A stretch of DNA of 56,361 bases, filler included, from Dugesia japonica (lineage: Eukaryota), in the NCBI GenBank assembly GCA_001938525.1. It is 5 parts of 5 records of this genome, joined end to end, with 100 filler letters (N's around TTAATTAATTAA, not from the genome) between each part and the next. Parts side by side here need not be neighbours in the genome. Positions count along the whole stretch, not along the records: positions 1 to 11,443 come from MQRL01630205.1; 4 more parts are not named here. One strand, given 5' to 3'. Positions 1-6,000 of the stretch are shown piece after piece; position 1 is the first letter of the stretch, and each line of letters opens with the position of its first letter. The notes beneath the pieces were generated by a model. It saw only the letters and a program-made list of their open reading frames with translations. It did not search any database and was not told where the DNA came from. The position numbers were made by a program, and so were the translations under genes.

Positions 1-2366
1 AAAAGATCATAAGTATTTGATTTTGCATATTTAAGTTTAATGTTTGCATTTAACATTCCAGTTTCCCATGAATAACCTGGTGCAGAATACGAATAACAAG
101 GATCTAGTTTCAGGATATTTTTTAAACATGAATTACGAAAGTTTTCAAGGAAATCTGTTAGGATCAATACGTCAAGTTTCATGTAATGTAACATATAATC
201 CCAGAGATTTTTATATTCATTAAAATCATCTAAAAATAATTGATAGTCGGTATCACTGATTTCTTTTTGAGTAAGAGTGTTAAAGAAATCTTTTTTCTCT
301 GGTATTCTCTTTTCGCCCTTGTGGTTTTTGGATTTTAATAATGTTTCAACTTCTTGTGGATTGTTTCCTTTTACATACTCATATGGAAATGAGATTTTTT
401 TAGGTTTAAGATTGAAAGATTTTAGAATTGGATAATTATCGGAAGATGTTAATAGATTTCCCATAGTTTCTACGGATGTAAATGGGAGAAGTCTAGCTGA
501 ATCTAAGAATCTAATATTTTCAAATGAAAATGAAATATAATTATCTGATGAATGTGGTATTATCCTTTTTACTTTTCCTGTAAATTTTGTTATGAGTTCT
601 TTAAAAAATAAATGGTTATCATAGCCTGATGCATTGTGAAAATAAAATGGAATAAATAGATTTTTTACAGAAAAGTCATACAAATTACAATTTTTATGTG
701 CATAACCACGAGGTTCTCCTGTAAAATGATTATGATCTAAAACTGGATTATTTGAGATTTTTTTATCACAATAATAACAATTTTGATTTTCACTGTTATA
801 TGCCGGATATGTGCCTGTGAATTCACTTATTAATTTATTTTCTTTTATGTCATTTAATTTTTCATTAATTTCTTCTAAAAAGTTGAAGAAATCATCATAA
901 ATATTTTCACCGGAGAATTGAAAATATTCACTTTTTAATAGATGCGGATGTTCACTATGAAGATAGATTCCTAAAGATATTGCTTTTTGCTTTTTAGTTA
1001 TTATATTTGTATACGCTTCAAAATCGCCTAATAATATAAATGGTATTTTATTTTTCTGATAAAATTTATTAAATGAATAATAATCTTTAGATTCAAAGAT
1101 AATGTTATTTGGTTTTTGTTTAATACAAGCTTCTTGATGTTTTAATAGAATTTCTTCGCTGGAATAGCAATTCATACAACGTAAGCATGGATAATTTTTA
1201 TTTTTATTTCTTGTGAAAAATACAGTTAAATCTCGACATAGAACATAATGATTTTTATATATTAACAAGTTACATTTATTTTCTTCTGGAACTGGTTTTG
1301 TTATGTGATGCGAAATGTGAAGTGGTTCAAGTTTTTGATAAGCATTTATATTGAAAACATTTATTTTATAATCATTTAATTTTTCAAATTTAGGAATATC
1401 AATTATTTTCATTGGTAACAGTTCTTCTTCATATTTTAATTCTGGGAGATGACGAATGTAATTACTTACACGTGTTGGATTATCAAGTGGATGCTTATGT
1501 GCGAGAATTGAATACAGGAAACATTTGTTATCTTTATTTTCTATGTTGATTACACCTAGTTTTTTAAATGGTAATTTGCAATATGTTGCTCCAGCTTTTG
1601 ATTGATATTTATTTAAATATAATGTGAAATTGGTAATATACATTAATGACCAGCCAGATCCTTCTCGATCTTCATCTTGAATATATTTATCTAATTCATT
1701 GAATATTTCTTTGACGCTGGTATTAATTTCTTTTTTAATTGTAATTATTTTATTAGATGAATATGATTTGAAATCTCTTTCTGTGAATATATTATTAATT
1801 TCATTTGAATATTTAGATGTTACAATCATACTTACTTTTGCTTGTTTAACACTTTTAAAATAATTAATAATAATTTCTCTTATTTCATCTAAAAAATAGA
1901 AAATATCTTTAACTTGAAGAAAACTATAATTTTTCTCAATATCATTAAATATTTCCACTTTACTTTGTAAAAAATATGATATTTCTAAATGTTTATATTT
2001 ATCAACCCTAAATATATCTCTAATTTCTGCTGAGTAATCAATAGCTTCTTCACCTGGTAATTCTCCGAAATTAAATGTTTTAACATTTTTTTCGTGTTTT
2101 TTCGACTCAAAATGAAGTCGTGCGTAATATTGTCTTGTAAATGTTTTATTACAAATTCCACAGTGCAATGGAAAAATTACAGGTTTACATTTTGATAATT
2201 TTAAATGAGATTTTAAATATTCTCTTTTTTTAAATCCCCTTTTACACTTCTTACATTTAAATGGCCTGGAATCAAAACATGTTCTAGATGATAAATGCCC
2301 TTTTAAACCTGCGTTATTTCCTAATATTTTATTACAATGCCAACATTTAAATATTGGAGGAGCCAT
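1..2366 (-). CDS. polB: Protein-primed family B DNA polymerase, copy L (5' part; runs off the window), with N-terminal zinc fingers
   Basis: Manual translation from ATG at 2366: MAPPIFKCWHCNKILGNNAGLKGH...REGSGW...NKDNKCFLYSILAH...GDFEA...CYYCDKK..DHNHFTGEPRGYAHKNCNL...FHNASGYDNH...YMKLDVLIL...SNTYDL. The frame at base 3 is consistent with the ATG (788 codons). It is absent from the ORF track because there is no stop inside the window. Confidence 0.93.
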   Translation of the reverse strand, partial: MAPPIFKCWHCNKILGNNAGLKGHLSSRTCFDSRPFKCKKCKRGFKKREYLKSHLKLSKCKPVIFPLHCGICNKTFTRQYYARLHFESKKHEKNVKTFNFGELPGEEAIDYSAEIRDIFRVDKYKHLEISYFLQSKVEIFNDIEKNYSFLQVKDIFYFLDEIREIIINYFKSVKQAKVSMIVTSKYSNEINNIFTERDFKSYSSNKIITIKKEINTSVKEIFNELDKYIQDEDREGSGWSLMYITNFTLYLNKYQSKAGATYCKLPFKKLGVINIENKDNKCFLYSILAHKHPLDNPTRVSNYIRHLPELKYEEELLPMKIIDIPKFEKLNDYKINVFNINAYQKLEPLHISHHITKPVPEENKCNLLIYKNHYVLCRDLTVFFTRNKNKNYPCLRCMNCYSSEEILLKHQEACIKQKPNNIIFESKDYYSFNKFYQKNKIPFILLGDFEAYTNIITKKQKAISLGIYLHSEHPHLLKSEYFQFSGENIYDDFFNFLEEINEKLNDIKENKLISEFTGTYPAYNSENQNCYYCDKKISNNPVLDHNHFTGEPRGYAHKNCNLYDFSVKNLFIPFYFHNASGYDNHLFFKELITKFTGKVKRIIPHSSDNYISFSFENIRFLDSARLLPFTSVETMGNLLTSSDNYPILKSFNLKPKKISFPYEYVKGNNPQEVETLLKSKNHKGEKRIPEKKDFFNTLTQKEISDTDYQLFLDDFNEYKNLWDYMLHYMKLDVLILTDFLENFRNSCLKNILKLDPCYSYSAPGYSWETGMLNANIKLKYAKSNTYDL

Positions 2367-2530
2367 TTTATTAAGTAAAAATTTTAATCGTAGTGAAGTA
2401 ATTGAGGGTCTTTTTTTATTTTAGAGGATTTAATTTTATATATTTTTTCATTTAAAAGGGTCCTATTTTACCCTTTTTTTACTGTAAAATGTGACATTTT
2501 ACATGCCAAATGCGCCATTTTCACGAAAAT

Positions 2531-3012: not shown

Positions 3013-3084
3013 TAAAATTAAACCCTTTTAAATAAAAAAAGACCCTCTTTTACTTCCCTATGATTAAAATTTTTAATTAATAAA
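3005..3084 (+). promoter_or_regulatory. Putative polB promoter (TATATAAAA), mirrored upstream of copy L (~2367-2445)
   Basis: TATA-like box ~70 bp before the ATG, conserved in both inverted copies; both have a TAAAATG start context. Confidence 0.45.
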
Positions 3085-6000
3085 ATGACTTCCCCAATAT
3101 TTAAATGTTACCATTGTAATAAAATATTAGGAAATAATGCGGGTCTAAAAAGTCATTTATCATCTAGAACATGTTTTGAATCCAAACCATTTAAATGTAA
3201 GAAATGTAAAAGGGGATTTAAAACAAAATATCATTTAAAATCTCATTTAAAATTGTCAAAATGTAAAACTGTAATTTTACCATTATTCTGTGAAATTTGT
3301 GATTTAAAATTTAAAAAACAAAATAACGCAAAACTACATTTTGAGTCTAAAAAACACGAAAAAAATGTTAAAAAATTTAATTTCGAAGAATTACCGGGTG
3401 AAGAAGGAATTGATTACTCACCAGAAATTAGAGACATATTTAGAGCGCATAAATATAAACATTTTGAAATAACTTATTTTTTAAAAAGTAAAGTGGAAAT
3501 GTTTTATGATGTAGAAAAATATTGTTTTTTAGAAATTACTGATATTTTCTATTTTTTAGATGAAATAAGAGAAATTATTATTAATTATTTTAAATGTGTT
3601 AAACAAGCAAAAGTAAGTATGATTGTAACATCTAAATATTCAAATGAAATTAATAATATATACACAGAAAGAGATTTCAATTCATATTCAAACAATAAAA
3701 TAATTACAATTAAAAGTGAAATTAATACCCATGTCAAAGAAATATTCTATGAATTAAATAAATATATTGAAGATGAAGATCGAGAAGGATCTGGTTGGTC
3801 ANTGATGAATATTACCAGTTTCACATTATATCTTTCTAAATATCAAGCAAAAGCTGGAGCTACATATAAAAAATTACCATTTAAAATAAAAGGTGTAATT
3901 AACATAGAAAATAAAGATAATAAATGTTTTCTATATTCAATTCTCGCACATAAATATCCAGTTGAACATCCAACACGTGTAAAAAATTACAGTAAACATC
4001 TCTCAGAATTAAAATATGAAGATTTCACATTTCCAATGAAAATAATTGATATTCCTAAATTTGAAAAATTAAATGATTATAAAATAAATGTTTTCGGTGT
4101 CAATGATCAAAAGAAACTTGAGCCTTTACATATTTCGCATCACATAACAAAACCAGATCCAGAAGAAAATAAATGTAACTTGTTAATATATAAAGATCAT
4201 TATATCCTATGTCGAGATTTATCTATATTTTTCACAAGAAACAGAAATAAAAATTATCCATGTCTACGATGCATGAATTGCTATTCCTCTGAAGAAATCC
4301 TATTAAAACATCAAGAAGCTTGCATTAAACAAAAACCAAATAACATTATTTTTGATTATAAAGAATATTATTCATTTAATAAATTTTANNNNNNNNNNNN
4401 NNNNNNNNNNNNNNNNNNNNNNNNNNNNNNNNNNNNNNTTTGAAGCATATACAAATATAATAACTAAAAAACAAAAAGCAATATCTTTAGGTGTTTATCT
4501 TCATAGTGAACACCAAAACCTTTTAAAAAGTGAATATTATCAATTTACAGGTGAAAATATTTATAATGATTTCTTTGAGTTTTTAGAAGAAACTAGTGAA
4601 AAAATAAATGATATAAAAGAAAATAAATTAATAGAAAAATACACAGGAACATATCCGAGATATAACAATGAAAATTGTTATTATTGTAACAGAAAAATCA
4701 CCAAAGACCCAGTTTTAGATCATAATCATTTCACAGGTGAACCCCGAGGTTACGCACATGAAAAATGTAATTTGTATGACTTTTCTGTAAAAAATCTATT
4801 TATTCCATTTTATTTTCACAATGCATCTGGCTATGATAANNNNNNNNNNNNNNNNNNNNNNNNNNNNNNNNNNNNNNNNNNNNNNNNNNGGCTATGATAA
4901 CCATTTATTTTTTAAAGAATTAATAACAAAATTTACAGGAAAAGTAAAAAAGATAATACCACATTCATCAGATAATTATATTTCATTTTCATTTGAAAAT
5001 ATTAGATTCTTAGATTCAGCTAGACTTCTCCCATTTACATCTATTGAAGTTATGGGTAATCTACTAACATCTTCAGGTAATTATCCAATTCTAAAATCTT
5101 TTAACCTAAAACCTAAAAAAATCTCATTTCCATATGAGTATGTAAAAGGAAACAATCCACAAGAAGTTGAAACATTATTAAAATGTAAGACCCATAAAGG
5201 GGAAAAGAAGATACCAGAGAAAAAAGATTTCTTTAATACTCTAACACAAAAAGAAATATCTGATCAAGATTATCAATTATTTCTAGATGACTTCACTAAC
5301 TTTGAAAATCTTTGGGATTACATGTTACATTACATGAAATTAGATGTTCTAATTTTAACAGATTTCCTTGAAAACTTTAGAAATTCATGTTTAAATAATA
5401 TTCTTAAACTAGATCCATGTTATTCATATTCAGCACCAGGATATTCATGGGAAACTGGAATGTTAAATGCAAATGTTAAACTTAAATATGCTAAATCAAA
5501 TACTTATGATTTATTCTTATTAATTGAATCTGGAATTCGAGGTGGTTTTTCAGGTGTCCTCGGCGAACGTCAAGTCTTCAGTCATAATAAAAATCAAACA
5601 ACCAGAAAATTAAATAAATCACAATTTGAAGATTTCATGGAAGTGTTTTATAAACATAAATTTATTCCAGATGAATATCTTGATCAACTAATGGGAGAAA
5701 CATTTATAAAATATATTGATGAAAATTCTTTATACGCAAGTTGTATGACAAGACCACTTCCAACAGGTGAATTCAGCGAATGTAATGAGCTGGAGTTAAT
5801 TTATGAACAAGCAACAGATAAAATTAATTACATTTACGAAGTTGATCTTGAATATCCAAAAGAAATCCATGATATCACAAAATATTTTCCATTAGCACCA
5901 GAAAGAATAAATATTACAGAAGACATGCTTTCTAATTATCAATTAAGTTTTAACAAGAAAATATCAAAAGATAATATTAAACTTACATTGAATCAATTTA

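Follow-up and report, generated by a model that had tools for sequence, protein, structure and literature searches.

Two DNA polymerase genes, L and R, lie head to head in the window of Dugesia japonica DNA analysed here (56,361 nucleotides in all, made of five joined parts; assembly GCA_001938525.1). Their closest described counterparts are the pPolB of Polinton/Maverick elements (adintoviruses) which, as set out in the accessible parts of two studies (10.1101/2024.03.18.585575; 10.1101/697771), combine in this order a terminal-protein (TP) domain with a linking serine, an OTU protease with a Cys/His pair, an exonuclease with a DxE motif and a palm of the PF03175 type. Insertion of a nuclease into a Polinton polymerase has been described in nematodes and oomycetes, where pPolB2 carries HNH or VSR inserts (PMC10748475, of which the available text contains neither 'zinc' nor 'finger'), and some adintoviruses possess separate zinc-finger genes, named 'Ziftr' (10.1101/2024.03.25.586562, in the part available). 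No description of N-terminal finger arrays on Polinton or adintovirus polymerases was found in the literature covered, supplements, Repbase maps and most subscription journals being outside its scope. L and R have the domain order and the key residues of the Polinton/Maverick enzyme and, like the pPolB2 proteins, an insert of nuclease type; unlike the Polinton/Maverick enzyme, they place three zinc fingers ahead of the TP domain, and they occur as two copies head to head. We conclude that they are two members of a multi-copy family of Polinton/adintovirus type whose polymerase starts with a three-finger module, and that the finger-bearing pPolB is a genuine variant in the layout of an already known polymerase family.

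The finger-bearing polymerase and its relatives

Positions 1-11443 of the window are a single contig (MQRL01630205.1), closed by an N-linker, with a G+C content of 21-30%. The two long open reading frames (ORFs) diverge in it from a repeat array, L on the minus strand (3..2366; 788 codons in the window, off whose edge it runs) and R on the plus strand (3085..7031), and are 85-90% identical at the DNA level. L was recognized by its ORF, Pfam matches, structural model and invariant residues, R by its ORF and a PF03175 match (E=1e-20). R contains two N runs (4389-4438 and 4840-4889), and the pieces between them were compared one by one. From the start codons (ATG at 2366, minus strand, and at 3085, plus strand) the first 145 codons align without a gap. 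The palm matches PF03175 (DNA_pol_B_2) with 74.5 bits against a cut-off of 25.8, as is proper to family B2.

The order of the predicted domains in L is: three fingers, a flexible linker, the TP domain, a vOTU domain, an internal finger and an exonuclease with an endonuclease VII (EndoVII) insert. An AlphaFold model built from 57 sequences (mean pLDDT 81.5; a single-sequence fold gave a pLDDT of 34 and was not used) has three strand-strand-helix fingers at residues 1-90 (helices 18-26, 48-56 and 79-89; pLDDT 63-82), a low-confidence linker at 93-146 and folded domains beyond. The fingers follow each other in tandem with a period of 30-31 residues and short linkers, the first of which aligns gap-free to the Kruppel linker of PRDM9, and among PDB sequences they best match DNA-binding finger proteins. 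On the minus strand, fingers 1, 2 and 3 of L occupy 2277..2345, 2187..2255 and 2094..2162, with NNAGLKG, KREYLKS and RQYYARL at helix positions -1 to +6; those of R, on the plus strand, occupy 3106..3174, 3196..3264 and 3289..3357, with NNAGLKS, TKYHLKS and KQNNAKL. Pfam recognizes finger 2 as zf-C2H2, finger 3 of L as zf-met (E=6e-7) and finger 3 of R as zf-C2H2_jaz (E=5e-10). Fingers 1 and 2 end in H-x5-C, i.e. they are C2HC fingers without the H-x3-5-H ligands of the classical type; finger 3, which ends in H-x5-H, is the only C2H2 finger and is U1/matrin-like. These assignments bear out a preliminary description of the locus, made from the DNA sequence alone, whose quoted residues were also right (KREY in L against TKYH in R for finger 2, TRQYYARLH against KKQNNAKLH for finger 3, and G against S at +6 of finger 1).

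Beyond the linker, the predicted TP domain of L (1608..1928, minus strand) holds a putative linking serine, Ser237, in a GSGW motif. This serine is kept in 125 of the 127 relatives with a residue there (among 128 aligned relatives) and is placed by the model between a helix (213-235) and a strand (239-253), in agreement with the TP description in section 6 of 10.1101/2024.03.18.585575, as available. A TP domain with Ser237, as predicted for L and R, matches the fused TP expected of a pPolB. The next domain (1197..1580, minus strand) is probably a vOTU protease, judging from its position and from section 8 of the same partly available source; its Cys282 and His373 are kept in 128 and 127 of the 128 relatives, respectively. 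It is followed by a C2HC finger (1125..1187, minus strand; 4261-4323 in R) that served as an internal control: none of its 26 residues differs between L and R, despite nine nucleotide differences. The region of D448 and E450, both present in 128 of 128 relatives, is read as a likely exonuclease I from this conservation and from sections 6 and 8. Inside this domain lies the EndoVII-like insert (678..800, minus strand), whose PF02945 match (E=9.5e-5), at 22.7 bits, is slightly below the cut-off of 23.6; its D544, H545 and N561 are found in 113/124, 121/125 and 123/124 relatives. A fold search of the PDB returned nothing at E≤0.001; the top fold matches were polymerases of adintovirus and bidna-like type, among them one with the automatic name 'C2H2-type domain-containing protein'.

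The relatives came from a search with L minus its fingers, which found 7269 proteins at E≤0.001, the closest only 39% identical; 165 were fetched and 128 aligned, 84 of them having 140 or more residues ahead of the linking serine. Fingers, one to four per protein, were present in 26 of these 84, mostly at the extreme N-terminus and spaced 25-32 residues apart, and 48 of the 57 fingers are C2H2. Asn or His at +3 and Arg at +6 are marks of DNA-binding fingers. The former was seen in 26 of the 57 fingers versus 6 of 115 internal fingers (p=6e-10) and the latter in 22 versus 12 (p=3e-5), with no enrichment in the relatives' fingers for Arg at -1 combined with Asp at +2 (p=0.3); such base-contact residues favour DNA binding. 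On a FastTree tree of the 84 rows, finger presence changed 14 times against a mean of 22.4 after shuffling (none of 500 shuffles as low) and is thus clustered yet labile. The position of L on this tree is uncertain, its branch being long and its composition unusual.

Linked related loci were recovered neither from viral contigs (0 of 7 candidates for L, 0 of 5 for the R palm) nor from metagenomes (0 of 52 for R), and taking residues 1-240 of R as query was equally negative (0 of 91 candidates). Cluster P0010, with fingers in three of five aligned members, was too uniform to inform (98% identity), and two further alignments, A3 and A4, were set aside for their excessive diversity. P0078 gave one locus, L001, whose polymerase is without N-terminal fingers. 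L001 (1-13423) is a metagenomic Polinton-like virus with integrase-, ATPase- and capsid-like ORFs (named by eye) next to its finger-less pPolB. Some 590 bases upstream of this gene lies a 35-bp tandem repeat, and there is a 58-bp repeat where the locus ends.

Divergence of the fingers and of the repeat array

The preliminary description had presented the finger helices as what differs between the two polymerases. Between L and R, 7 of the 12 canonical positions (-1, 2, 3 and 6 of each helix) are changed. The corresponding figures are 15 of 80 for what is left of 1-92 (Fisher p=0.0066), 15 of 62 when non-structural finger residues alone are counted (p=0.025) and 58 of 341 downstream (p=0.002); these p values are generous, the helix positions having been picked after inspection. 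When the 12-position mask was shifted, 7 was reached by 3 of 614 shifts: besides the true register these were 28 and 30, close to the period of one finger. The true register was also the best among 25 local shifts. In finger 2, five non-synonymous changes fall within 12 bases that have flanks of six identical codons. That the helix positions differ more between L and R than the rest of the finger region is correct, but to make them the difference between the polymerases was an overstatement: of the 771 aligned residues 116 are changed, and 109 of these changes lie elsewhere than at the canonical positions. Divergence in the linker (13/57), the vOTU region (26/128) and the EndoVII insert (9/43) is about as high as in finger 2 (6/29), and L 313-317 and 339-343 form clusters in which differences are equally dense. 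The image of changing helices on conserved scaffolds does not fit finger 3, which differs at 11 of 30 residues, hairpin included, or finger 1, whose helix is barely changed. Similarly, the near-identity reported close to the exonuclease is real for the internal finger and for residues 566-788 (14/223), not for residues 417-565 (25/134). As to rates, non-synonymous change is greater in the helices than elsewhere (p=0.004), and its value at helix sites (dN, 0.38) exceeds the gene-wide synonymous rate (dS, 0.24), not significantly; since the helices do not significantly outpace synonymous change, relaxation and positive selection are indistinguishable.

Other copies are present in public DNA runs. 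Of the words sampled, 29-47% recur in seven runs made from one organism in three studies, and contigs of 4 of the 24 listed runs were placed on 2000-3500: there were 413, 473, 472 and 55 of them per run, many just 85-95% alike, which points to a multi-copy family. The finger alleles of L and R are not assembly errors, since matching contigs exist: L 2190-2343 is covered by one with no other letter (run X1, which may be the source sample) and R 3187-3309 by one with a single other letter (run X4, from a different study). Among the variants listed, +1, +2 and +3 of finger 2 are changed together (to Q, K and N) on a single contig in each of X1 and X3; a further pattern is found in X3 and X4, X4 also carrying part of the Q/K/N changes; and at +3 of finger 3, N>H predominates by depth in X1, X3 and X4. 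Loose contig ends begin within the helix region of L finger 3 (2122 and 2130) in all four runs. A drop in summed depth over finger 2 (7-16 versus 375-903 alongside, in X1, X3 and X4) was not used as a sign of copy-specific fingers, depth not being copy number.

Each gene is preceded by an array of short repeats, split here at their AAAATG core: 19-21-bp units upstream of L (2480..2733, minus strand) and 20-21-bp units upstream of R (2746..2930, plus strand), the pattern being confined to 2480-2930. Six distal A-run units are followed by three proximal T-run units in the L arm, and three by six in the R arm; the arms differ mainly in where the switch is located. In the middle units, 8 of 21 bases distinguish one arm from the other, and within an arm these units are homogeneous. 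At the junction, an exact 47-bp inverted repeat with a 10-base centre (2688..2791; hairpin z=-12.7) makes the outermost units common to both arms. The notion of arm-specific 21-bp repeats is thus valid for the middle units and fails elsewhere, the outermost 47 bases being identical and both arms holding A-run and T-run units: the repeats are one common family in different proportions rather than two private sequences. In three of the four runs a contig has L-like proximal DNA fused to units of the R type (joint 2512/2857). The array may mark a genome end. About 70 unrelated bases inside the L array have no counterpart in R, and an exact 42-bp tandem duplication (2931-3012) in the R promoter region is absent from L. 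Seven viral contigs matching the common repeat unit were discarded as chance matches, none of them having a pPolB match.

Possible roles of the fingers

The fingers are located on the predicted TP precursor and adjoin the repeat array. Our tentative reading, to which we give a little less than an even chance, is that they bind DNA, most plausibly the element's own subterminal array of 20-21-bp units, with helix residues that vary among copies and a loose turnover of subfamilies. In its favour are the helix-biased differences between L and R in the best local register, the internal finger left unchanged in the same two proteins, the additional helix alleles of the public runs, the base-contact residues in the relatives' fingers, and the Kruppel-like linker and PDB matches described above. 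Replication would be primed at Ser237, after which the vOTU would cut behind the TP; a cleavage between TP and vOTU by the vOTU is the hypothesis of section 8 of 10.1101/2024.03.18.585575, in the part available. If this cleavage is real, the fingers would remain attached to the linear genome at its 5' end, next to the array, where they could help to bring the precursor onto the origin or could control the pPolB promoter, some 115-400 bases off. Fingers and repeat units would turn over together, loosely, among subfamilies, with specificities that overlap and do not exclude one another.

Several observations weigh against this reading. No such fingers were found in 58 of the 84 relatives (some of which may be incomplete), so that fingers appear dispensable for priming. 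Neither L nor R has an Arg at +6, a single Arg is found at -1 among the six fingers, and the best Pfam families of finger 3 (zf-met and zf-C2H2_jaz) include RNA binders. The helices of L and R depart too far from the usual finger code for a target motif to be read off them. The variants listed from the public runs fall in hairpins and linkers too, and in this comparison of two sequences the helices have 8.5 changes for 28.3 non-synonymous sites versus 48.1 for 238.3 synonymous sites (p=0.11-0.21). None of the listed contigs bridges the arm junction, and neither a target duplication nor an AG-type terminus, which is a Polinton feature, was shown, the far element ends lying outside the window.

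Part of these facts would be expected if the fingers were an optional appendage under relaxed constraint, with exposed helix residues drifting near neutrally on a fold that holds the zinc ligands and core, and with repeats turning over independently by slippage. Helix dN is not significantly above gene-wide dS, other exposed patches are equally divergent, variants are spread over the whole finger region, and fingers are absent from 58 of the 84 relatives, where the tree requires 14 or more switches between presence and absence. We nevertheless judge drift somewhat unlikely: the helix excess holds against the non-structural finger residues (7/12 versus 15/62), the five clustered changes of finger 2 stand between identical flanks, base-contact residues are kept in the relatives, and finger presence is clustered to a degree that no shuffle attained.

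The head-to-head pairing, finger differences apart, might also be a misjoin of two family copies through their common palindromic repeats, in which case the central arm-to-gene pairing is possibly unreliable. The contigs on this 1.5 kb (413-473 per run in X1, X3 and X4), the exact palindrome at the centre, bridged by none of the listed pieces, and the several N gaps of the contig are all compatible with such an accident. It is rather unlikely in view of low-depth contigs with few or no other letters, which tile parts of the arms (2314-2453 in three runs; 2598-2717 in X4) and indicate that each arm exists as written, at least partly.

The preliminary description had suggested an origin or incompatibility code; in the strict form of such a code, each polymerase would recognize the repeat of its own arm only and subfamilies would not cross-replicate. 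This is the extreme form of the overlapping specificity that we favour, and it draws on the same helix-biased change and on middle units that are distinct between arms and homogeneous within them. We consider it unlikely, given the identity of the outermost 47 bases, the occurrence of both unit types on both arms, the mosaic upstream region seen in three of the four runs and the fact that two linked finger-repeat pairs are known in all.

A choice of target, as in the R2 retrotransposon, is another conceivable role: the fingers would direct the polymerase, with its EndoVII insert, towards DNA of the host or of a sister element, there to cut, recombine or insert, and insertion into the end repeats of a relative would yield a head-to-head pair. 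The EndoVII catalytic-type residues are kept, and the N-terminal fingers of R2 act on target DNA (PMC11204384, in the part available). Integrase, ATPase and major capsid genes like those of L001 gave no tblastn match in 1-11443, a finding that fits this role only as far as the contig goes, since it is partial, with L running off the window edge, and the missing genes may lie outside. A vOTU cut behind the TP would moreover separate the fingers from the nuclease, and we regard this role as very unlikely. Least probable of all is that the fingers bind RNA or host proteins and that their helices change through conflict with host defences, as the Pfam families of finger 3, the C2HC ligands of fingers 1 and 2 and the nearest Atlas clusters (small viral proteins of those families, with a recognition score below threshold) might suggest, for the relatives' fingers are mostly C2H2 (48/57), with DNA-type helices and tandem spacing.

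Surroundings of the genes and comparison with known systems

Downstream of R, three ORFs of 234, 438 and 280 aa follow on the plus strand (7080..9967). By their motifs they may correspond to genes known from the virion operons of adintoviruses, namely the cupiennin-like, the gasderminX/pX-like and the penton gene, although they had no Pfam match below E=0.027. Those three gene classes are described in section 6 of 10.1101/697771, as available. Immediately behind the penton-like ORF lies a 1.25-kb single-gene unit (10013-11258) in which a 375-aa ORF (10099-11226) stands between perfect 42-bp inverted repeats (10013-10054 and 11217-11258); this ORF had no Pfam match and its Atlas leads were all below 0.9, and the unit may be a satellite or a small passenger element.

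The rest of the window, beyond 11443, contains retrotransposon relics, among them two broken Ty3/Gypsy-like pol relics (44300-46780, minus strand, and 53100-55760, plus strand) named by eye from translations. A decayed hAT-like transposase sequence (about 11600-12550, plus strand) was likewise seen by eye only, and there are a degenerate 31-bp tandem array (46850-47640) and a coding-like 42-bp repeat (47996-48156). A decayed pPolB palm fragment (33740-34670, minus strand) is about 30% identical to R; it was rejected as a member of the L/R family, this identity denoting another, distant pPolB family.

The literature covered gave no answer to the question of how Polinton polymerases locate the end of their own genome. 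Carried by 26 of 84 relatives and differing from copy to copy within one genome, a finger array fused to the TP is a candidate for such recognition that is both small and soluble. If fingers and repeats co-evolve, they would constitute a self/non-self code among eukaryotic virus-like transposons, akin to plasmid incompatibility; if the fingers merely drift, the finding shrinks to an undescribed optional domain. In its most far-reaching form, which we hold to be unlikely, the idea is that of a PRDM9-like code: TP-tethered fingers and the subterminal repeats read by them would co-evolve and divide the family into subfamilies that are incompatible in replication, and an origin-reading module would be carried, across hosts, by about a third of the related polymerases.

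Two further systems invite comparison. With the Kruppel-type arrays of PRDM9 and the KRAB-ZFPs, L and R share the fold, the register of the linker between fingers 1 and 2 and the helix-biased change; unlike them, they have only three fingers (two C2HC and one U1-like), no homogenised minisatellite, and a helix change that does not significantly exceed the synonymous one. The R2 non-LTR retrotransposon, as described in the available part of PMC11204384, resembles L and R in having one to several N-terminal fingers on the polymerase-endonuclease polyprotein of a mobile element. It differs from them by its Myb domain, its reverse transcriptase and its fixed target in the ribosomal DNA, and no homology is claimed.

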